From contig JAUYJS010000008.1 of NCBI GenBank assembly GCA_030698565.1, forward strand, positions 15,098 to 79,097: a stretch of 64,000 nucleotides of DNA, given 5' to 3'. Origin of the DNA: Candidatus Shapirobacteria bacterium. Its GTDB lineage: Bacteria; Patescibacteriota; Microgenomatia; UBA12405. Below are positions 46,969-58,424 of the stretch, one piece after another. The translations under genes and the position numbers were made by a program. The notes beneath the pieces were generated by a model that saw nothing but the letters and a program-made list of their open reading frames with translations, was not told where the DNA came from and did no database searches. Numbering within the stretch: the first letter of the stretch is position 1; each line of letters starts with the position of its first letter.

Positions 46969-46981
46969 CTACACTTGTAGT
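46969..46981. promoter_or_regulatory. cop-box-like dyad cTACActTGTAgt abutting the ATG of the BlaI/CopY-like repressor gene
   Basis: Matches the TACAnnTGTA operator consensus of BlaI/MecI/CopY repressors. Related dyads occur at 47366-47382, 53273-53288 and 56355-56370. Confidence 0.45.
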
Positions 46982-47350
46982 ATGAATTGCCAAGTTAAAT
47001 GTCGTCAAAAATGCCAATTATTAGGCTCTTTAGAACAAAAAATAATTGAAGTTTTGTGGAATGCGAAAAACCCGCTTAAGCCAGCCGAAGTCCTAATGAA
47101 AATTGAAGGTGAATATTCATATACCACCATCATGACTGTATTAAAAAGGATGTCTTTAAAAGGAATTTTAAAAAGAGAGTTGAATGGTAAGGTCTATTTT
47201 TACAGTCCTTTAAAAATCAAAGAAACTTTTGTTGCCGATTGTTTAAATGACTTATTCGCCCGCCTTTTTGATTGTTATGGGCAAGCTGTAGTTGATTCTT
47301 TTTATTCTTCTGCTAAAGAAGCTAATATTAAAACCTCACTTGCTTCTTGA
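46982..47350 (+). CDS. BlaI/MecI/CopY-family winged-helix transcriptional repressor
   Basis: 122 aa with LGSLEQKIIEVLW...YTTIMTVLKRMSLKGIL. Has an extra Cys-rich N-terminus, MNCQVKCRQKCQ. Confidence 0.7.
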   Translation: MNCQVKCRQKCQLLGSLEQKIIEVLWNAKNPLKPAEVLMKIEGEYSYTTIMTVLKRMSLKGILKRELNGKVYFYSPLKIKETFVADCLNDLFARLFDCYGQAVVDSFYSSAKEANIKTSLAS

Positions 47351-47381
47351 CATTTTTTTTAACTCTACTACACTTTGTAGT

Positions 47382-48893
47382 ATGTCAACAAAAAATAAAG
47401 TTCAAACATTCTTTGTCCAAGGTCTTCACTGTGCCTCTTGTCAATTAATAATCGAAAAAAGATTAATTAAAGAAGATGGTATTGAGATGGTTGATGTTTC
47501 CCTAAACAAAGGATCTCTAACGATTGAACACAATCCTGATCTCAAAATAACACCCGATGTTTTAAATAGAATCTTTAATGAAGACGGTTACAAATTTGCT
47601 CGTGAACATTTCAAAAAGACCCAACAAATAGCTAAAAATAGTCATTGTGCTATTCCAGACGAAGCTCCATCTAATCCTTTAAATTCATATTTAATTGCAG
47701 GTATCTTTATTTTGGGTTATCTATTTTTATCCAAGAGTGGTTTTTCTTCTCTAATTTCAGTTAATTCCCAATCATCTTTACCAGTATTTTTTCTTTTTGG
47801 ATTATTAGCCGGCCTTTCTAGTTGTGCTGCCTTAGTCGGTGGAATAATTTTATCTTTAAGTAAACAATGGTTATCAGTATATAGCTCCGACGAATCAACC
47901 CTGAGAAAATCCGAGCCCCATATTCTTTTTAATCTAGGTCGAGTTTTAGGTTATGTCGTTTTAGGGGGAGTTTTAGGTTACATCGGTAATTTCTTTAGAC
48001 TATCGCCAATTACCACCGCATCGATAGTTATCTTAGTTTCTTTATTTATGGCCGCTTTAGGTTTACAAATGGTTGGAGTAAAAGCTTTGCGTAATTTTCA
48101 AATTCGATTACCCACATCTATAACCCGAAAATTAGCTGATGAAACTAATTTCCAAGGGCGTTTGGGACCATTTTTAATGGGGGCCTTAACTTTCTTTTTA
48201 CCCTGTGGTTTTACTGCTACCGCTCAGGCTTTAGCTCTTTCTTCAGGTAATCCTACTCAAGGAGCTTTGATTATGGGTTTATTTGCACTAGGTACGGTTC
48301 CTGGCCTTTTAGCTATTGGTTTAAGTAGTGTCAAATTTTATAGTGATCCCAAAATTTCTCGTCAGTTTTCTTTAATTGCCGGAATTTTAGTTCTGTTCTT
48401 TTCCATTTTCAATATCAATTCTCAGATGTCGGTTTTAGGTGTTTCTAGTCTAAGTGATTTAATTCCGAGTAACATAGCAACAAAAACCCAAACTGTGGGG
48501 GAGTTGCCGCCAATGGTGAACGGAAAACAAGTTATTAAAATTAAAGCGTCTTCCACTGGTTACATTCCAAATCGTATTACGATGAGAGCCAATACTCCAA
48601 CACGCTGGGAAGTTACCGATACTGGTACTAGTGGTTGTACCAACGCTATTATTTCCCGAAGTTTATTTGAAGGTCAAATTGACTTAACCCCCGGTACTAT
48701 ATCTTTTAAGGAATTTACATCACCTAAGCCAGGGAAATACAAGTTCTCTTGTTGGATGGGGATGATATCTGGAACAGTAGAAGTAGTGGATGAAACTGGC
48801 TCAACTGGAGCTACTGCAAATGCCGTACCAGTTGAATCTGGAGCCAAAGGTTGTGGTTGTGGTGGAGGCGGTAGCGCCTGTGGCGGCCGCTAA
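47382..48893 (+). CDS. Heavy-metal-associated (HMA) domain + DsbD_2/CcdA-like membrane domain + C-terminal cupredoxin-like domain protein
   Basis: Start reassigned to ATG 47382 (MSTKNKVQTF). GLHCASCQ HMA motif, about 6 TM with an LPCG motif, and a C-terminal cupredoxin-like domain (KPGKYKFSCWMGMISGTVEVV) with a Gly/Cys tail. Confidence 0.55.
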   Translation: MSTKNKVQTFFVQGLHCASCQLIIEKRLIKEDGIEMVDVSLNKGSLTIEHNPDLKITPDVLNRIFNEDGYKFAREHFKKTQQIAKNSHCAIPDEAPSNPLNSYLIAGIFILGYLFLSKSGFSSLISVNSQSSLPVFFLFGLLAGLSSCAALVGGIILSLSKQWLSVYSSDESTLRKSEPHILFNLGRVLGYVVLGGVLGYIGNFFRLSPITTASIVILVSLFMAALGLQMVGVKALRNFQIRLPTSITRKLADETNFQGRLGPFLMGALTFFLPCGFTATAQALALSSGNPTQGALIMGLFALGTVPGLLAIGLSSVKFYSDPKISRQFSLIAGILVLFFSIFNINSQMSVLGVSSLSDLIPSNIATKTQTVGELPPMVNGKQVIKIKASSTGYIPNRITMRANTPTRWEVTDTGTSGCTNAIISRSLFEGQIDLTPGTISFKEFTSPKPGKYKFSCWMGMISGTVEVVDETGSTGATANAVPVESGAKGCGCGGGGSACGGR

Positions 48894-48943
48894 ATTTATT
48901 GAATTTATTAATTCTTAATTATTAATTTTTAATTAAACTAATT

Positions 48944-49156
48944 ATGCAAACAGTAACTTTTAGTATTCCCGACATGCACTGTCCTTCTTGTCCTAAATTA
49001 ATCAAATTGACTTTACTAGACATCGATGGGGTTAATGAAGTTGAAGCTTCGTTAGACACAAAAAAAGTAGTTGTTAATTTTGATTCTCAAAAAACTTCAG
49101 TTGTTTCACTTATTAATTCAATCAAAGAAACTGGATATACCGCCAGTCTTAAATAA
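48944..49156 (+). CDS. copZ: Copper chaperone CopZ (HMA domain)
   Basis: 70 aa with the MHCPSC metal-binding motif. Near-duplicate of the first HMA domain of the downstream ATPase. Confidence 0.8.
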
Positions 49157-49160
49157 ATCT

Positions 49161-52100
49161 ATGACTCAAGATATAAAATCAAAGCAGGTGATTTTATCTG
49201 TTCCCGATATGCACTGTCCTTCTTGTCCTAAATTAATTACTCTCGGCCTCAAGGATCAATCCGGAGTTATTTCTGTTAATGCTTCTTTGGAAAATAAACA
49301 AGTCGTTGTTAATTTTGATCCGGAAAAAATTAAAATCAACGATTTATTAGCCAACATAAAAGAATCTGGATATACAGCCATATCCAAAGAGAACGGAGAT
49401 ATGCCTGTTATCGAAAATGCACCACCTGAATTACCTACAAAAACAATTACTCCAACTACTGTTTCTGGTACCCAGGTTGCCCTTTTAAATTTAACTGGTA
49501 TGCACTGTTCTTCATGTGCTGGTTTAATTGAAAGGTCTCTTAAAAAAATACCCGGCGTGACTGAAGTCAATGTTAATTTTGCCTCGGAAAAAGCCCGGAT
49601 TGTTTACAATTCCAACACAACAAAGGTTGAAGATTTGATTAAAGGTGTCGAATCAGCTGGTTACCACGCCTCACAGCCTGGTGAAAAAGAAGAAAACCAG
49701 AAAGAAAAACGAGCCCACGAAATTAGTTATTGGTCCAAAAAATTTCTCCTAGGTCTGGTTTTGAGTTTACCCATGATTCTTTTCATGGTTTACGATTTCA
49801 CTAATGCCATTCCATTTAAGACCAGCATTATGCCTTACGCCGGAATTCTCTCACTGCTTTTATCCACCCCGGTTCTTTTTTATGTCGGATCAAACTTTTT
49901 CGCTGGTTTTTGGTCAGCCCTAAAAATGCGAACTTTTTCTATGGATTCGTTAATTGCTATCGGTACCGGTACTGCTTTCACCTACAGTCTTTACGAATTC
50001 ATTAAATATGCTTCTGAAACAGGTTCCATTATTGGTTTAAATGGCACAAAGGTTCCAGATCTTTATTTTGAAGTAGCGGCATTTTTAATCACCTTTGTTT
50101 CTTTAGGTAAATATCTTGAAGCCAAAGCCAAAGGCAAAACTTCCGAAGCGATTGAAAAACTCACAGGGTTAGCTCCTAAAACCGCCCGAGTTATGCGTCA
50201 AGGTCAACCAATCGATATCCCAGTAGAACAGGTCGTTGTGGGGGATATCATTGTTGTTCGTCCTGGTGAAAGAATTCCAGTTGATGGTGAGGTAGTTTCT
50301 GGTTATTCAGCTGTCGATGAATCGATCCTTACGGGTGAATCTTTACCTGTTGAAAAACAAATTGGGTCTAAAGTTTATACAGCTTCTATCAATAAAACCG
50401 GTTCCTTCGAATTTAAAACTACAAAAATTGGTGCCGACACAGCCTTAAGTCAAATCGTAAAATTAATTGAAGATGCCCAAGGGTCTAAGGCGCCAATCCA
50501 AGCTGTTGCCGACAAAATTTCTTCAATTTTCGTTCCAGTGGTTATTGGAATTGCCATTCTTACCTTCATAGTTTGGTATTTTTTACTTAGTGCCACTTTA
50601 ACCTTTTCTCTTTTAGCTTTTGTTGCTGTTATCGTTATTGCCTGTCCTTGCGCCTTAGGCTTAGCTACTCCGACTTCAATCATGGTCGGAACTGGCAAAG
50701 GGGCCGAATATGGTGTTTTGATAAAAGGTGGTGAACCTTTAGAAATGGCTGAAAAAATCAAGGCCATCGTCTTTGACAAAACTGGTACCCTAACTAAGGG
50801 TAAACCAGAAGTAACCGACTTTATAAATTACCTGCCAGGTGATCAAACTATTCTTTCAGTTTTGTATTCAATTGAACAAAAAAGCGAGCATCCCTTGGCC
50901 GAAGCCATTGTTCGTTATGGTCAAAATACTGGTGCTGTTAATTATGCCATTGAAGACTTTCAAGCCATCCCAGGTCATGGTGTCAAAGCCACCGTTAATG
51001 GGCAAGTCTATTTTGTAGGTAATCGTAAACTTTTGGAAATCAACCAAATTCCTCTAACTTCTGGTTATGACATGGAAAGATTAGAAAACGATGGTAAAAC
51101 CGCCATGGTCATAGCTAATCAAGAAAAAGTTTTAGGTTTAATTGCTGTAGCCGATCAAGTTAAAGAATCATCTGCTTCAGTTGTCTCCAAGCTAACAAAA
51201 ATGGGTATAACTGTTTATATGATTACTGGCGACAACCGTCGTACAGCTGATGCAATCGCTAAACAGGTCGGTATTACTAATGTATTAGCTGAAGTTTTAC
51301 CTCAAAATAAAGCTGAGGAAGTTAAAAAGCTTCAAGATTCTGGTATTAAAGTTGCCATGGTTGGTGATGGTATTAATGACGCTCCAGCTCTAACTCAAGC
51401 TGATTTAGGTATAGCCATGGCCTCTGGTGCCGATATTGCCATGGAATCAGGAAATATTGTAATAATGACCAACGACTTAAACGGCGTTTTAACTGCCATA
51501 AGTCTATCGCGGGAAACTGTTGGTAAAATTCGTCAAAACATGTTTTTTGCCTTATTTTATAACGTCTTAGGTATCCCGATTGCAGCCCGCGCCTTAGCTT
51601 TTATGGGTCTTATTCTTAAGCCTGAGCTAGCTGGCTTGGCTATGGCATTGTCTTCAGTTTCAGTTGTGACCAATTCTTTAACCCTAAAATTATTTAAGCC
51701 AGGTAAATTCAATTGGATTTCTCGTTTAGCCCCTTTTGTTATGGTGGGTCTATTTTTAGGTGTATTTATCGAATTTGCTCGATTTTCTTCCCAAATGGGA
51801 GGATTAGAGTCTGGGGCCAAATCTGGGCCGGCTGCCTATATTCAAAAAGCTCCAGTTATTAAAACAGTCATAAATAGGCTTTTGGTCGACAATGCTTCCA
51901 AGATTGGTTTTGCGGAAAACCTCCCTAAGTTATTTATAGGTGTCAACAAATTACCTGAATCAATAATGCTAGCCGAGGGCTCCTCCGATCTTTCAGAACA
52001 GGGAAGTGTCATTTTAGGTGCCAAAGAAGCTGCCATGATGACAGAAGAAGGTTTAATTAGTGGTATCAATTCTGAGATCCCTGACTTTTTCGGGCTACCC

Positions 52101-52544
52101 AAATTAAAAGTTGTCGGCATCCTGGCTCCTACTGGCACGATTCTAGACGAATATCATATCTTTAGTAAAGATAGCTTAGAAGGTTTAACCAAAGCTAATA
52201 ATGATTTTCTAATTACAGAAACTCCCCTAGAAGACCTTAAACTTTTTTATCTTTATGACAGTGCCAATATCCCTAAGGCTTTAGATTCACTTATCAACCC
52301 AGCCAAAACTTCATATACGATTGATGGAACTAAATATCTTTCGACCGTAATTGGTTATGATGAGGCCAAAATGATGATTAAAGAAAAACTTTTCCAAAAA
52401 AAGTTTGACACCATCAAAGATATTTTTGGCAACAATATTATAATTACCGGTCTTCCTAAAAAGACTCTTACTAGTCTTGATATGATGCACTTTGTACCCA
52501 GGGAATTTAAAGATAATTTTATTTCCACCTCTGAAAATAAATAA
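49161..52544 (+). CDS. copA: Copper-translocating P1B-type ATPase CopA with two N-terminal HMA domains and a ~300-aa C-terminal extension
   Basis: Start reassigned to ATG 49161 (MTQDIKSK), directly after the copZ stop. Motifs: MHCPSC, GMHCSSC, TGES, CPC ([12 protein letters not shown]), [17 protein letters not shown]. About 300 aa follow the last TM, with no counterpart in canonical CopA. Confidence 0.85.
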
Positions 52545-52556
52545 TCTATATAAAGT

Positions 52557-52970
52557 ATGAAAATTCCACCAAATTTAATACTTATTACTATTCTTATTGT
52601 TGGTGGATTTTTATTATTAAAATCTCCCACTGTTGTGACTACAACCAATCCAATATTAGAGGTAACTCCGACAACAGTTCCGGTTACAGACAAAGTACAA
52701 ATTTTAAAAGCCACATATGGACCACCAACAGGTTTTTACCCCATAGAATTTACTGTTAAAGCTGGTCAGCCAGTTCGACTTGAAGTTTTAGCCACTGAAA
52801 ACGGTCGTGGATGTATGGGAAGTATTATGGTTCCGGATTTTCTTCCTGACGATATTCAGTTTTTTACAAAAGGGGAAACAAATGTTTTTGAATTTACACC
52901 CACTATCCCAGGGGAATACCAAATAACCTGTGGCATGGGCATACCCCACGCTAGTTTAGTCGTTAAATGA
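52557..52970 (+). CDS. Membrane-anchored cupredoxin-like protein
   Basis: 137 aa, N-terminal TM. Its C-terminal domain is homologous to the C-terminus of 47382-48893 (EYQITCGMGIPHASLVV vs KYKFSCWMGMISGTVEVV). Confidence 0.5.
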   Translation: MKIPPNLILITILIVGGFLLLKSPTVVTTTNPILEVTPTTVPVTDKVQILKATYGPPTGFYPIEFTVKAGQPVRLEVLATENGRGCMGSIMVPDFLPDDIQFFTKGETNVFEFTPTIPGEYQITCGMGIPHASLVVK

Positions 52971-52972
52971 CC

Positions 52973-53236
52973 TTATTTCTCAGTTATCTTGTTATAAAGC
53001 CAACCCGTCGAACAAACAACTATCCAGGTCATGGCTGCATAAAATACAGCACCAAAAAGCATTTCTGGAATATTTAAAACAGTTACTTGTAAATCAGTCA
53101 ATTTAATTCCATGAAAAGCCATTGAGTACATTCTAAAAGAAATTTCAGGAAATAAATTTGTGATTACCGAGCACAACAAAAAATAAACAAATGTTACCGC
53201 CGCTGCTGCAATTGCTAAGATTCTATGCCTAATCAT
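52973..53236 (-). CDS. Small membrane protein, unknown
   Basis: 87 aa, 2-3 TM helices. Confidence 0.3.
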   Translation of the reverse strand: MIRHRILAIAAAAVTFVYFLLCSVITNLFPEISFRMYSMAFHGIKLTDLQVTVLNIPEMLFGAVFYAAMTWIVVCSTGWLYNKITEK

Positions 53237-53333
53237 TTAAATATTAATTAATAATTAAAAAAAAACGGTTACCTACTATAAAGTGTAGAATTACCTTAAG
53301 GAATTATCAACAGTTAAATTACTAGAATAAATT

Positions 53334-55364
53334 ATGGATCATTCAAAACATCAAATGCACGATATGTCCCACATAGACCATGAATCAGCCATGACCAATC
53401 CGAAAATGGCTGAGTTTATGGAAAAAGACATGCGTAACCGTTTCTTTTGGTCGTTACTTCTAACTATCCCCACGCTTTTGTTTACTTATCTTCCAATACC
53501 AACCGTAATCCCTAAAAACTGGTTATTAATGCTTTTGGTGACTCCAGTTGTCTTTAAATTTGGGTCGATTTTCCCTGTCGGTGCTTACGAAGCACTTAAA
53601 AAGAAAACTCTAAACATGATGGTTTTAATTGCCATCGGAGTATTAGCTGCCTACATTTTTAGCGTGGTAATAACTTTGTTCATTGGCGGTGAAACTTTTT
53701 TTGAAGCCGCGGCCATGTTGGTAACTTTTGTTCTCTTTGGCCATTGGATGGAGATGAAATCTCGTCGGGGAACATCAGACGCTCTTCGAGCTTTATTTGA
53801 TTTGGTTCCGCCACAGGCGCGAGTCTTTAGAGGTGGACAAGAATTAGTTATCTCTACTGCCGATGTTTTAATTGGTGATATTGTGATTCTTAAACCAGGC
53901 GATAAAGTTCCAGTTGATGGAGAAGTAGTTGAAGGCGAGACATCTATCGATGAATCTTTAGTAACTGGAGAATCGATTCCAGTTGAGAAAAAAGTTGGTG
54001 ATTTAGTCATTGGCGGATCGATCAATCAAATGGGATCACTTAAATTTAAGGCCATCAAGGTCGGTGCCGATACTGCTCTGGCACAAATCGTCAAACTGGT
54101 AGAAACCGCTCAAAATTCCAAAGCCCCAGGGCAAAGAATTGCCGACAAAGCTGCTCAATATTTAGTAATTTTAGCTATTGGATCAGGACTAATTACATTT
54201 ATAGTTTGGTATTTTGTACTAGGTCAATCATTATTATTTGCTTTAACTTTTGCTATTTCGGCTGTAGTCATTGCTTGTCCCGATGCCCTAGGACTGGCTA
54301 CCCCCACTGTCGTGGCTGTTGGTACTGGTTTGGGCGCTAAACATAATATTTTGATTAAAGATGCCACCACACTCGAACAAGTATCCAAAATTAATACTGT
54401 AGTGATGGACAAAACCGGGACTTTAACTGAAGGAAAACCAATTGTGACTCAAGTGATTGCGGCCAAAGGATTTACTGAAGATCAGGTCTTGATGTACGAT
54501 GCAGCGGTTGAAAAAATGTCGGGTCATCCATTAAGTAAAGCAATTCTTTCTGAAGTAGAAAAACGCAAACTGTCAATTTCAAATGACGTCAAAAACTTTA
54601 AAGCAATTTCCGGTCATGGAGTTGAGGCTATAGTTGATGGCAAACAGATAATCGTTGGCAATTTAAAACTAATTAAAGACAGGGGGATTGACATAGCCCC
54701 AATAGAATTATCGGTTCAAAAGCTTTTAAATGAAGGTAATACAATTATGTTATTGGCTATGGACAACAAGATTGCCGGAGTTGTTGGTGTCGCCGACCCA
54801 ATCAAAAAAAGCTCATATATCGCCGTTAAAAAGATGCAGGAAATAGGGATTGAAGTGGCTATGATTACCGGAGACAATCAAAAAACTGCAGATAATATTG
54901 GTAAAACTTTAGGAATTACTAGAATATTTGCCGAAGTGTTACCAGAAGATAAAGCCAATTATATTAAGAAACTCCAGAATGAGGGTAAATTTGTGGCCAT
55001 GGTTGGAGACGGAGTCAATGATGCACCAGCCCTCGCCCAAGCAAATATTGGTATTGCTATTGGCGCAGGAACTGACGTGGCTATTGAAACAGCTAATGTC
55101 GTCCTAATGAAGTCAGACCCATTAGATATTTTAAGAGCCATTCGATTAAGCAAAGCTACTGTCCGAAAAATGAAAGAAAATCTGGTTTGGGCCAGTGTTT
55201 ATAATGTTTTAGCCATTCCTATTGCCGCCGGAATATTATATCCAAGCATGGGTATAACTCTTCGTCCTGAAGTTTCAGCATTATTAATGTCTGTTTCTTC
55301 AATTATCGTGGCTACTAATGCAGTTTTATTGAAACGTGCGGAAAAGAATTTAATTACTATATGA
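53334..55364 (+). CDS. P1B-type heavy-metal ATPase, CopB-like (His/Met-rich N-terminus) with a CPD transmembrane metal-site motif
   Basis: 676 aa. The N-terminus (MDHSKHQMHDMSHIDHESAM) has no HMA domain. Motifs: TGES, IACPDALGLATP (CPD rather than CPC/CPH), DKTGTLT, GDGVNDAPAL. Confidence 0.8.
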   Translation: MDHSKHQMHDMSHIDHESAMTNPKMAEFMEKDMRNRFFWSLLLTIPTLLFTYLPIPTVIPKNWLLMLLVTPVVFKFGSIFPVGAYEALKKKTLNMMVLIAIGVLAAYIFSVVITLFIGGETFFEAAAMLVTFVLFGHWMEMKSRRGTSDALRALFDLVPPQARVFRGGQELVISTADVLIGDIVILKPGDKVPVDGEVVEGETSIDESLVTGESIPVEKKVGDLVIGGSINQMGSLKFKAIKVGADTALAQIVKLVETAQNSKAPGQRIADKAAQYLVILAIGSGLITFIVWYFVLGQSLLFALTFAISAVVIACPDALGLATPTVVAVGTGLGAKHNILIKDATTLEQVSKINTVVMDKTGTLTEGKPIVTQVIAAKGFTEDQVLMYDAAVEKMSGHPLSKAILSEVEKRKLSISNDVKNFKAISGHGVEAIVDGKQIIVGNLKLIKDRGIDIAPIELSVQKLLNEGNTIMLLAMDNKIAGVVGVADPIKKSSYIAVKKMQEIGIEVAMITGDNQKTADNIGKTLGITRIFAEVLPEDKANYIKKLQNEGKFVAMVGDGVNDAPALAQANIGIAIGAGTDVAIETANVVLMKSDPLDILRAIRLSKATVRKMKENLVWASVYNVLAIPIAAGILYPSMGITLRPEVSALLMSVSSIIVATNAVLLKRAEKNLITI

Positions 55365-55463
55365 AAACAATAAAAATAACCGCGATTCTCACCTGTCCCG
55401 AATGTAATAAAGCGCAATCAGTTATAATGTCCCTTAAAACAACTTGAAGGTACAAAAAAAGAT

Positions 55464-56309
55464 TTATTTTAATGCCGCATCAGCCACTGACTTCATATCA
55501 GTCCAGCTATATGCTCCAGCAAAGTTGGTCGAATTTAGATAAAATCCAGGAGTTCCGTTTACACCCAAGGAAGTCGCTAATGCAGAATCTTCAGCTAAAC
55601 GGGTATTATATTTGCCACTATCAAGACATTTCTTTAATTCACTTTTATTAACAGCAGATGCTAAGAAATCGGCTACCTGCTGCGATTTAGTGGCATCGTT
55701 TTTGACTTCGTCATTGATTAGTGTATAACCCTTGGCCGACATTAAAAGATCATGTGCTTGCCAAAACTTACCTTGATCAAAGGCACAATAAAGAGCCTTT
55801 GTTCCTAGTTCTCCGTTCCCGTGACCATTCGTATAAATCCACACAAAATCTGCTTTTCCTTGATCAATTAATTTTTTCATTTCCAAAATAGGTGGTACGT
55901 AAGTTCCACCCTGTGAAACTAATTTGAATTGTGGTCCCATTTGAGCTCCAATTTCAGTATTGGCTCCAGAGGCGACGCCGCAATAAGGACAGCTCGGATC
56001 CGATACTTCCACCATTAATAATTTTTTATCACCTTTACCAAATTTAATTACATTTTTAGAAAACAGACCCTTGATGGTTTCTTGTGATATTTGAGGTTTA
56101 CCTGGTACTTGTTGGGCTGGTTGAGGATCATTGACCGTCGGGTTGGCTACTACAGTAGCTTGATCACCATATTTGCTTTTCCCAAAAAGATACCCAACAG
56201 CAAAAGACAGAAGTATTATAAGCAAGGAAAAAAAATAAAGCATACTCTTATCTACCACTAATGGAGTAGGTGAATTATATCTTGTTGGTTGATTACTTTT
56301 TCTTATCAT
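55464..56309 (-). CDS. Membrane-anchored DsbA-like thiol:disulfide oxidoreductase (thioredoxin fold)
   Basis: 281 aa, N-terminal TM, CPYC active site (DPSCPYCG). Confidence 0.7.
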   Translation of the reverse strand: MIRKSNQPTRYNSPTPLVVDKSMLYFFSLLIILLSFAVGYLFGKSKYGDQATVVANPTVNDPQPAQQVPGKPQISQETIKGLFSKNVIKFGKGDKKLLMVEVSDPSCPYCGVASGANTEIGAQMGPQFKLVSQGGTYVPPILEMKKLIDQGKADFVWIYTNGHGNGELGTKALYCAFDQGKFWQAHDLLMSAKGYTLINDEVKNDATKSQQVADFLASAVNKSELKKCLDSGKYNTRLAEDSALATSLGVNGTPGFYLNSTNFAGAYSWTDMKSVADAALK

Positions 56310-56371
56310 ACTAGATTCTATTAACGCTAGCCAAAAATGTCAAGAAGGTAATGTGCTACAATAGGTAGTAT

Positions 56372-56740
56372 ATGGTAAAAACCGATCTTTTAGGTTCACT
56401 TGAGCAAAAAATCATGGATATTTTATGGACTGCCAAAACTCCCCAAAAACCAGCCCAAGTTCTAAAAAAACTTAAGGGAAAATACGCCTACACCACTATT
56501 ATGACTGTTCTAAAACGGATGAACGATAAGTGTGTTTTAGAAAGAAAATTAATTGGTAAGGTTTATTTTTATTCCCCCTTAGCCAATAAAGAAAAATTTA
56601 TTAAATCTAATTTGTCGGGAATTTTTGATGAATTAGTTGGTTCTTATGGCCACCTCGCCATCTCACAATTTGTCGATTCTATAAAAAATAATAAAGATGA
56701 TTTAAAATTACTTCAAAAATATTTAAGTCAAAACAAATGA
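56372..56740 (+). CDS. BlaI/MecI/CopY-family transcriptional repressor (paralog 2)
   Basis: 122 aa with LGSLEQKIMDILW...YTTIMTVLKRMNDKCVL. Overlaps the downstream M56 gene by 4 nt. Confidence 0.7.
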   Translation: MVKTDLLGSLEQKIMDILWTAKTPQKPAQVLKKLKGKYAYTTIMTVLKRMNDKCVLERKLIGKVYFYSPLANKEKFIKSNLSGIFDELVGSYGHLAISQFVDSIKNNKDDLKLLQKYLSQNK

Positions 56741-57693
56741 ACTCAAAAAGTTTAAACAGTTTTCGTAACCTTTTTTTCTTTTTAATTGTCAGTCTCGGTT
56801 TAATTTACACTTTAATACTAGTCAAAGGTTTAGGTCGGTCAATGTCGGGCTTTGTTATGCAACTAATTTTTCTTTTAGACATTTTAAAAACCCAACCACT
56901 TCTTTCATTAAAATTAATATTTTCATCCCAGTTCGTTTTTAATGTTGGTTTTGGTTTTACTATTTTATTTCTCAGCCTTAAATATTTAAACGCCTTACTT
57001 CGCTCATTATTAAACTTTAATTTAACTCAAAAAACCATAAAAAATTTAATAATTATTAAATCAAACAAGAAATATTTTATTTTTAAATCAACTCAACCCC
57101 AAGCTTTTACTGTCGGATTTTTCTTACCCAAAATTTATATTTCTACATCTCTTATTAGAAAAAGTACAGACATTGAACTTAAGGCTGTATATCGGCATGA
57201 ATTAAAACATAAAATGAACTTAGATCCACTAAAAGATTTTATTATTAATTTTATTTCACTATCACTTCCCCCATTTTTTGGTAAAAAAAAGTTTTTTGGT
57301 CAATATTCTGCCCTCGTGGAAATTAATTGTGACTCTTTTGCCCAATTAAAACTTAAAAGTAGTCTTCCTTTAGTTTCTGCCTTGCTCAAAACAACATCTT
57401 CTCATTCAGTAATCTTGGAAACCGCCGCTTATTTTTCTAGTCAAAGTGAAAGAATAAAAGTCTTGGTCGGTGAAAGTCGACTAAAAATTAAACAACTATT
57501 TTTAATGAATTCATTCATTTTAGTTTTTGCCATATTTAGTTTAAATCTGGTTACTAACACCAATCTTTTTTATAACTGCGAGCACGTACTTAAATGTGTC
57601 CAAATCTTTTTATCCGAGAATAAGCAAACTAAATTAGTTAATTCTTCACCTGTTTCAGTTTCTCCAGTTATGGACCATTGTCCCCAATGCTAA
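56737..57693 (+). CDS. BlaR1/MecR1-like M56-family membrane metallopeptidase (no C-terminal sensor domain)
   Basis: 318 aa, polytopic, HEXXH motif (YRHELKHKMN). C-terminal CPQC. Confidence 0.5.
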   Translation: MNSKSLNSFRNLFFFLIVSLGLIYTLILVKGLGRSMSGFVMQLIFLLDILKTQPLLSLKLIFSSQFVFNVGFGFTILFLSLKYLNALLRSLLNFNLTQKTIKNLIIIKSNKKYFIFKSTQPQAFTVGFFLPKIYISTSLIRKSTDIELKAVYRHELKHKMNLDPLKDFIINFISLSLPPFFGKKKFFGQYSALVEINCDSFAQLKLKSSLPLVSALLKTTSSHSVILETAAYFSSQSERIKVLVGESRLKIKQLFLMNSFILVFAIFSLNLVTNTNLFYNCEHVLKCVQIFLSENKQTKLVNSSPVSVSPVMDHCPQC

Positions 57694-57965: not shown

Positions 57966-58424
57966 ATGTTTTTAGTTAACCCAGCTTATGCCCAATGTCC
58001 GGTTTGTATTGTTACTGTTGGCGGTGGTATGTTTATCGCCAGAAAGCTAGGCGTAGACGATTTATTGGTTTCTACATGGATTGCAGCTTTAAATGTAGCC
58101 GCTTCTTTTTGGTTGGCTCCAAAAATAAAAAATAGAATATTGGGCAACCCGGTTATATTTTCCTTATTAATGCTCGGTTTCACTTTTTTTTATTTTTATA
58201 CTACAAAACAAATCGGTCTCCTTCATAGCAAAATTTTAGGAGTAGATAAAATTATTTTAGGTCAAATCATTGGAACCTTAATTATGTTTTTAGGCATCTT
58301 TATTGATCGTTTTTCTCGGATTAAAAACGGTGGTAAAATTCTTTTCCCTTACCAGAAAGTCATTTTTCCTATAGGTTCGCTTTTAATTATTACTCTTATT
58401 TTTAAATTTGCCTTCAATCTTTAA
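57966..58424 (+). CDS. Membrane protein, unknown (N-terminal CPVC motif)
   Basis: 152 aa, 4 TM. Confidence 0.35.
   Translation: MFLVNPAYAQCPVCIVTVGGGMFIARKLGVDDLLVSTWIAALNVAASFWLAPKIKNRILGNPVIFSLLMLGFTFFYFYTTKQIGLLHSKILGVDKIILGQIIGTLIMFLGIFIDRFSRIKNGGKILFPYQKVIFPIGSLLIITLIFKFAFNL

Follow-up and report, generated by a model that had tools for sequence, protein, structure and literature searches.

A CPD-type P1B ATPase in a copper-handling island of Candidatus Shapirobacteria: an intact member of a widespread CopB-related lineage

The residue that follows the proline of the CPx motif in membrane helix M4 is a direct metal ligand of P1B-type ATPases and the main criterion by which these pumps are sorted by substrate. 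In this study, we analysed a 64,000-nucleotide stretch of a Candidatus Shapirobacteria genome (contig JAUYJS010000008.1, positions 15,098 to 79,097, assembly GCA_030698565.1; hereafter the window) that encodes a P1B ATPase in which this motif reads CPD, in place of the CPC of CopA or the CPH of CopB. CPD is a clade-defining motif under amino-acid-level selection, and the window gene is an intact, ordinary Patescibacteria member of an under-characterised CPD subtype, of which earlier work gives no more than a bare description. The protein is probably a working copper exporter of the CopB lineage, with Asp317 replacing the second Cys or His ligand.

The triplet C315-P316-D317 lies inside VVIACPDALGLATP, the M4 motif as a whole reading IACPDALGLATP, and it is encoded in frame by TGT CCC GAT; the CPD noticed in this second ATPase in an earlier sequence-only reading is thus real. 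The nine nucleotides TGTCCCGAT are found once in the window, at 54276-54284, but such a 9-mer alone is not statistically unusual, being present in 27 of 100 shuffled sequences, and the significance of the motif comes from its aligned M4 position and its conservation, not from rarity of the 9-mer. In the alignment with LpCopA (Legionella pneumophila CopA, 3rfu), D317 falls on C384, the second Cys of CopA, which is the position of the His in CopB. The sequence-only reading had also considered that the codon might be a sequencing error (CAT misread as GAT) or an inactivating substitution; the latter would point to an incipient pseudogene. While GAT does differ from the His codon CAT by a single base, an identical protein of 676 aa is present in three independent assemblies, SRR13727534 and SRR26726065 among them, all 240 relatives examined, both close and distant, carry CPD, at least 120 species have it, both GAT and GAC are used for the Asp, and the open reading frame (ORF) is full-length with every catalytic motif and all copper-pathway residues intact. 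With the Asp invariant in 212 of 212 CPD-clade proteins as well, artefact and decay are refuted, and we allow them practically no probability.

All 120 of the best database homologues of the window protein (72-91% identity) carry CPD in the context [IV]ACPDALGLATP; these homologues come from Shapirobacteria, candidate division WWE3, Daviesbacteria, Microgenomates and other Patescibacteria. When 1.84 billion 50%-identity cluster representatives were searched, the top four matches were CPD proteins, followed by CPC CopA and six CPH proteins. The most divergent CPD representative among the top matches, P0124 from Candidatus Aquicultor, was in turn used as a query, and its best 120 relatives were again all CPD; they include proteins of Mycobacterium sp. 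155, Mycolicibacterium rhodesiae, Deinococcus indicus and Rubrobacter, with the contexts IACPDALALATP and ITCPDALGLATP. An exact degenerate-codon scan over one genome per GTDB species, which passes over the ITCPD and CPDALALATP contexts, found ACPDALGLATP encoded in at least 120 species genomes of about ten phyla. Eighty of these loci represent Alpha-, Beta- and Gammaproteobacteria, Chloroflexota, Gemmatimonadota, Patescibacteria, Armatimonadota, Bacteroidota, Acidobacteriota, Myxococcota and one Bathyarchaeota metagenome-assembled genome. Every complete copy among the scanned loci retains DKTGT, TGE, YN(x)4P and MxxS[ST], and the Asp is written GAT 69 times and GAC 58 times, which means that the amino acid is conserved and not the nucleotide sequence. 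CPD ATPases were further found by tblastn against PLSDB on plasmids of Ralstonia, Variovorax, Paracoccus, Roseovarius, Polaromonas, Pseudomonas and others; none of these matches is a named or characterised homologue (e.g. of CopF, ActP or SilP type), all being annotated generically as 'heavy metal translocating P-type ATPase'. That CPD is peculiar to Patescibacteria is ruled out by the results of both searches, over genomes and over plasmids.

An alignment of 345 sequences (212 CPD, 6 CPH, 126 CPC and 1 CIC; 620 core columns) showed that CPD and CPH proteins form a clade apart from CPC CopA, with 100% neighbour-joining (NJ) bootstrap in two data sets, and that the CPH proteins are themselves a clade at 100%. 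These CPH representatives score 285-302 bits against the ATP-binding domain of AfCopB (Archaeoglobus fulgidus CopB; 3skx/3sky) and 183-192 bits against that of AfCopA (3a1c), and are thus truly CopB-type. Residue 317 is the single clean discriminator of the three groups: Asp in 212/212 CPD, His in 6/6 CPH and Cys in 126/126 CPC proteins. CPD and CPH have the derived residues H137, W138, M141, G146, L277, A281, G285, P596, M613 and A627 in common, whereas at R144, D206, K342, P369 and the exit-Glu position E124, among others, CPD retains the CopA state and CPH has diverged. M95, E140, D271, C315, P316, Y623, N624, M652 and S655 are invariant or nearly so throughout CPD, CPH and CPC, M95 being kept in 211/212, 6/6 and 123/126 proteins, respectively. 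The core contains a single Cys in 180 of the 212 CPD proteins.

The window protein carries the Pfam domains E1-E2_ATPase and Hydrolase (HAD), matches the NCBIfam copper-ATPase model TIGR01511 at 580 bits (cutoff 397) and TIGR01525 at 597 bits (cutoff 346), and aligns with LpCopA over residues 31-669 (E 2e-162, 545 bits). The class P1B motifs TGES (211-214), DKTGT (359-363), HP (398-399) and GDGVNDAP (558-565) are all present, as is TGDN, and so is the copper-type P1B signature made up of YN(x)4P in M5, MxxS[ST] in M6 and a Met at the start of M1. The sequence-only reading had likened the protein to CopB (P1B-3) for its His/Met-rich N-terminus, and this likeness was borne out both by the tree and by the composition of the first 36 residues (MDHSKHQMHDMSHIDHESAMTNPKMAEFMEKDM...), which hold 5 His and 7 Met. 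C315 is the sole Cys of the protein, CxxC is absent and Pfam gives no HMA match. Just before helix MA, the pattern H16...M29..D32 is kept in CPD and CPH (5/6 CPH) proteins across phyla but not in CPC, and at the cytoplasmic end of M2 the residues H137, W138 and M141 of GHWMEM are likewise common to CPD and CPH and not found in CopA.

The earlier statement that CPD lies outside the classical P1B signatures holds. The P1B-2 (ZntA/CadA) class is ruled out, for M5 and M6 carry YN and MSVSS, not an M5 Lys and an M6 Asp (DxG); ZntA/CadA structures score 257-274 bits against 545 for CopA, and the ZntA equivalog NF033775 reaches 315 bits where its cutoff is 1240. A signature comparison detected no P1B-2, P1B-4 or P1B-5 signature. 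P1B-1 (CopA) is set aside because the M4 motif is CPD, not CPC, and no N-terminal HMA domain with CxxC is found. With P1B-3 (CopB) the protein has in common the His-rich N-terminus without CxxC and the position on the CopB side of the tree, while Asp317 replaces the His of CPH.

The motif has been noted before. A 'novel CPD motif' and P1B-3 subtype were reported in 2017 for three rhizobial plasmid ATPases, which form cluster VIc, called 'P1B-3a', on plasmids of Xanthobacter autotrophicus Py2, Nitrobacter hamburgensis X14 and Bradyrhizobium sp. BTAi1 (Microbiologyopen, PMC5552934); this was the one relevant paper from our full-text searches, in which the other matches to 'CPD' concerned critical-point drying and similar terms. 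A search for further CPD P1B ATPases, which the sequence-only reading had suggested, thus found many, grouping with CPH CopB; the motif is common and its assignment to a P1B-3 subtype is already in print, which largely amounts to the case that the reading itself had named as refuting its point, CPD as a frequent and already classified subgroup motif. The three plasmids were retrieved here as relatives, at 69% identity, of the CPD protein of Ralstonia holmesii (locus L007). Like the Rhizobiales cluster VIc proteins, the window protein has CPD, YN(x)4P in M5 and MSxSS in M6 and groups with CPH CopB. Unlike that branch, it is only about 50-55% identical to the proteobacterial CPD proteins and falls in a Patescibacteria-dominated subclade, at 99% bootstrap with Saccharibacteria and Moranbacteria copies; it is shorter (676 aa), has a short His/Met tail in place of a long HMA-like N-terminus without CxxC, reads YNxLAIP against their YNxxAFP, and has no DUF6629 or MFS partner beside its gene. 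Cluster VIc was described as having few N-terminal His and being longer than CPH CopB, which the window protein does not and is not; as N-terminal architecture varies widely in the CPD clade, this feature looks specific to the rhizobial sample. Proteobacterial CPD pumps (L007, L009, L019, L037, L079 and others) have an N-terminal HMA-like domain without CxxC, with a conserved CG[FYH]HC...P.H[LV]C motif followed by MAHEMGHGxGMDM, and some Patescibacteria copies carry a PF19335-type CPxCGM heavy-metal-binding domain instead; since these modules differ between copies, they appear to be exchanged freely within the clade.

With CPH CopB of A. fulgidus and Enterococcus hirae (P1B-3), the window protein shares the His/Met-rich N-terminus, the lack of a CxxC HMA domain and the joint clade; it differs in having Asp for His in CPx and MSVSS for MSxST in M6, and it scores 545 bits against LpCopA, where the CPH representatives score 427-434. 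With CopA (P1B-1; LpCopA 3rfu, AfCopA 7r0g, HMA4 8q74) it shares the fold and 41-44% core identity, the M1 Met, first Cys, Pro, YN, MxxSS and exit Glu being identical, but it has Asp for the second CPC Cys, no HMA domain and an extra His and Met in the entry region. A carboxylate directly after the helix-breaking Pro of M4 is also found at the ion site of P2-type ATPases (PEGL, e.g. Glu309 of SERCA). These pumps differ in having hard-cation substrates and no Cys or Met ligands, and they match the window protein at only about 125-140 bits, so the likeness is one of analogy and not of membership.

An AlphaFold2 (AF2) model built on 40 homologues, with a mean predicted local distance difference test score (pLDDT) of 82.5, predicts an eight-helix membrane domain (MA, MB, M1-M6) with helices at residues 23-52, 61-76/79-89, 95-117, 123-155, 265-295, 300-313/317-336, 596-631 and 645-675; M4 is predicted to be broken at residues 314-316, and residues 1-21 are disordered in the model. 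Among the structures compared, which include no full-length CopB, the fold matches CopA, HMA4 and ATP7B with TM-scores up to 0.85, the best matches being Cu-ATPases in the E1 state, namely plant HMA4 with Cu (8q74; 0.85) and AfCopA (7r0g; about 0.8). In the AfCopA and HMA4 structures, solved by crystallography and cryo-EM, the Cu+ entry site consists of the M1 Met and both Cys of CPC, and the second Cys, 2.1 Å from copper, is a direct Cu+ ligand; both Cys and the M6 Met make up the proposed high-affinity site, and the second Cys and M6 Met start release (PMC9433437, PMC10973460). Because D317 is homologous to this second Cys, it occupies the place of a direct metal ligand.

We infer copper as the substrate, D317 as one of its direct ligands and an outward direction of transport. 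The His/Met-rich tail and the entry region of M95, H137, E140 and M141 would first take up the copper, and an entry site of M95, C315 and D317 would follow. At the M4-M6 site it would be occluded by the sulfur atoms of C315 and M652 together with the D317 carboxylate, which would stand where CopA has its second thiolate and CopB its imidazole. D359 would then be phosphorylated and the copper released to the outside past E124, so that it would leave the cytoplasm by the standard P1B cycle.

The ATPase gene lies inside a copper-handling island of about 46.0-58.4 kb, which starts with an ECF sigma factor and whose features are given in Table 1.

Table 1. Features of the CPD ATPase and of the surrounding copper island (window positions)
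Feature	Position	Strand	Remarks
First BlaI/CopY-family repressor	46982..47350	+	cop box TACACTTGTA directly upstream
HMA-DsbD_2-Cupredoxin fusion membrane protein	47340..48893	+	gene calls, domain matches
CopZ-like HMA chaperone	48944..49156	+	70 aa
Canonical CopA (CPC, two HMA domains)	49161..52544	+	1127 aa; C-terminal extension of ~280 aa
Small membrane-anchored cupredoxin-like protein	52557..52970	+	
DUF5676 two-transmembrane protein	52973..53236	-	divergent from CPD ATPase
CPD-type P1B (CopB-like) ATPase gene	53334..55364	+	ATG start, 676 aa; ORF, Pfam, NCBIfam, LpCopA alignment, AF2 model
N-terminal His/Met-rich tail and conserved pre-MA motif (DHESAMTNPKMAEFMEKDMRNRF)	53334..53441	+	without HMA/CxxC domain
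M95, entry-site Met of M1	53616..53618	+	equivalent to LpCopA M148, AfCopA M158
GHWMEM (residues 136-141), cytoplasmic end of M2	53739..53756	+	E140 = LpCopA E205
TGT CCC GAT = C315-P316-D317, M4 CPx metal-site motif	54276..54284	+	in frame
Phosphorylation motif DKTGT (residues 359-363)	54408..54422	+	invariant in alignment A3
M5 copper signature YN(x)4P = YNVLAIP (residues 623-629)	55200..55220	+	Y623, N624 invariant in CPD, CPH and CPC groups
M6 copper signature MxxSS = MSVSS (residues 652-656)	55287..55301	+	M652 = LpCopA M717
DsbA/Thioredoxin_4-like protein (CPYC)	55464..56309	-	
Second BlaI-family repressor	56372..56740	+	
M48/BlaR1-like membrane protease	56737..57693	+	C-terminus ...SPVMDHCPQC

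The window's only cop box, TACACTTGTA at 46970-46979, precedes the first BlaI/CopY-like gene by 3 bp, where the copZ-copA operon begins; it is suggestive by its position and not by its count, with 0.68 expected by chance per window. No CopY operator of the form TACAnnTGTA was found upstream of the CPD gene. Palindromes of CTAC-N-GTAG type occur upstream of the CPD ATPase (CTACTATAAAGTGTAG, 53276-53292) and upstream of the second BlaI-like gene (CTACAATAGGTAG, 56353-56365), and these may be a candidate shared operator; promoter and terminator scans over 46-58.6 kb gave no excess of sites over shuffled sequence. The second BlaI repressor is translationally coupled to the M48/BlaR1-like protease, and this pair could provide metal-sensing signal transduction controlling the adjacent pump. 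The next ORF after the protease (57966-58424) encodes a membrane protein starting with a CPVC motif.

The fusion protein consists of a cytoplasmic HMA domain, a DsbD_2 membrane domain and an extracytoplasmic cupredoxin, and it is kept beside CopZ, CopA and the CPD ATPase in two Patescibacteria lineages (the window and locus L123, 4409-5773). DUF5676 likewise stands beside CPD ATPases in two unrelated Patescibacteria loci (the window and locus L127, 10720-10980). The mechanical ORF of CopA (TTG at 49071, 1157 aa) is over-extended, as gene calls on the identical contig start it at 49161, just past the copZ stop (49156). Its extension after M6 (51693-52541) has one extra hydrophobic helix followed by about 250 residues, has no significant Pfam match and, given the extra helix, would place a domain of about 250 residues on the cell exterior. 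Over 48000-56000, GC content is 0.38-0.40 in both ATPase genes against 0.30-0.33 in the flanks, which could reflect lateral acquisition or simply the base composition that conserved genes have. Most of the window shows a strongly negative GC skew.

Related loci have a similar character. The CPD homologue of WWE3, another Patescibacteria lineage, adjoins the same HMA-DsbD_2-cupredoxin fusion, CopZ and CopA; a Daviesbacteria copy lies near a cupredoxin and a superoxide dismutase, and the Microgenomates copy at L127 near another P-type ATPase, DUF5676, a CsoR-like gene and conjugation genes. On plasmids, the Ralstonia gene stands beside copABCD/copRS, CopC and a copper four-helix-bundle protein, and the Nitrobacter gene beside RND efflux genes. 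On these proteobacterial plasmids the CPD ATPase belongs to a conserved DUF6629-ATPase-MFS unit with overlapping or nearly overlapping frames (L124, 8354-12760; L125, 8276-12710) within copper/RND resistance islands. Among 142 ORFs taken from the flanks of 120 species loci, by simple ORF picking that probably admits spurious ORFs in high-GC genomes, a few families were weakly enriched (MFS 7, DUF6629 5, multicopper oxidase 4, cupredoxin 3), with CusF, HMA, DUF2933 and DUF305 as other neighbours. Taken together, gene neighbourhoods point to copper.

While we favour a copper exporter of the CopB lineage, several points weigh against it. A carboxylate is a harder ligand than a thiolate or an imidazole and does not suit a purely Cu(I)-binding site well, and thus the substrate could differ; CopA and CopZ already stand in the island, which suggests some functional difference and not redundancy. 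The trees are NJ trees of 620 core columns with six CPH representatives and no characterised full-length CopB, and at 20% bootstrap they do not distinguish a monophyletic CPD group from one that is paraphyletic to CPH. Outside Patescibacteria the gene context is loosely copper-specific, with many neighbours lacking a Pfam match and MFS and DUF6629 the most recurrent. The literature searched, which did not cover the Smith 2014 and Purohit 2018 classifications, held no biochemical or genetic data on any CPD-type ATPase. The main rival reading is that the Cys/Met/Asp site picks Cu(II) or another divalent cation (Zn, Co, Ni, Fe, Mn or Cd) and not Cu(I), which would make CPD proteins a separate subgroup beside CopA. 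The invariance of the clade-defining Asp implies strong selection for something specific, the single core Cys of 180/212 CPD proteins makes a CopA-type all-sulfur coordination of Cu(I) impossible, and a second P-type ATPase next to the CPD gene in the window, at the WWE3 locus and at L127 suggests non-redundancy. Acidic residues in M4 or M6 go with the transport of harder cations, as in ZntA (M6 Asp) and the P2 ATPases (PEGL Glu). However, all other copper-signature residues are kept (M1 Met, YN(x)4P, MxxSS, exit Glu) with no P1B-2, P1B-4 or P1B-5 signature, the neighbourhoods are copper-flavoured and not zinc- or cobalt-flavoured, and the GHWMEM entry site is common with CPH CopB, itself reclassified as a Cu(I) pump: P1B-3 pumps, originally named Cu(II) exporters, turned out to transport Cu(I) and were merged into P1B-1 (review, PMC7558416). 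We consider a change of metal unlikely.

Slightly less doubtful, though still unlikely, is the wider proposal that CPD proteins from Patescibacteria, Chloroflexota, Actinomycetota, Deinococcota, Gemmatimonadota and proteobacterial plasmids form a functionally distinct and very widespread P1B subgroup, the Cys/Asp/Met site of which would differ from that of CopA and CopB in selectivity (Cu(II) or another divalent) or in proton coupling. If this were true, distinct selectivity would explain why a CPD pump is kept beside canonical CopA even in very small Patescibacteria genomes. Improbable, by comparison, is a role in metallation, in which a low-rate copper exporter like CopA2/CcoI would feed nearby extracytoplasmic cupredoxin-type proteins and not serve detoxification. 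In the window (52557-52970 and the fusion at 47340-48893) and at the WWE3 and Daviesbacteria loci, the CPD ATPase does have cupredoxin-domain proteins as neighbours, cupredoxin occurs 3 times among 60 neighbours of Patescibacteria/Chloroflexi-type loci, and a detoxifying canonical CopA is already present in the island; but the proteobacterial copies lie in plasmid resistance islands with copABCD, RND efflux and multicopper oxidase genes, as is typical of detoxification, and the mobile-element genes at L127 also fit resistance cargo. A copper exporter of the CopB lineage thus remains the reading that we consider probable.

As far as the window is concerned, the analysis chiefly clarifies that the gene is unbroken and typical of its clade. 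The family is more interesting as a biochemical target. Its invariant Asp is a third state of the M4 ligand beside Cys and His, in a lineage at least as diverse in our sample as the CPH CopB clade, and this lineage, which is carried on resistance plasmids and common in Patescibacteria, has no annotation more specific than 'copper-translocating' or 'heavy metal' ATPase. The CPD clade is a natural experiment on the oxidation state, Cu(I) or Cu(II), of the copper that CopB-type pumps transport, a matter not yet settled.

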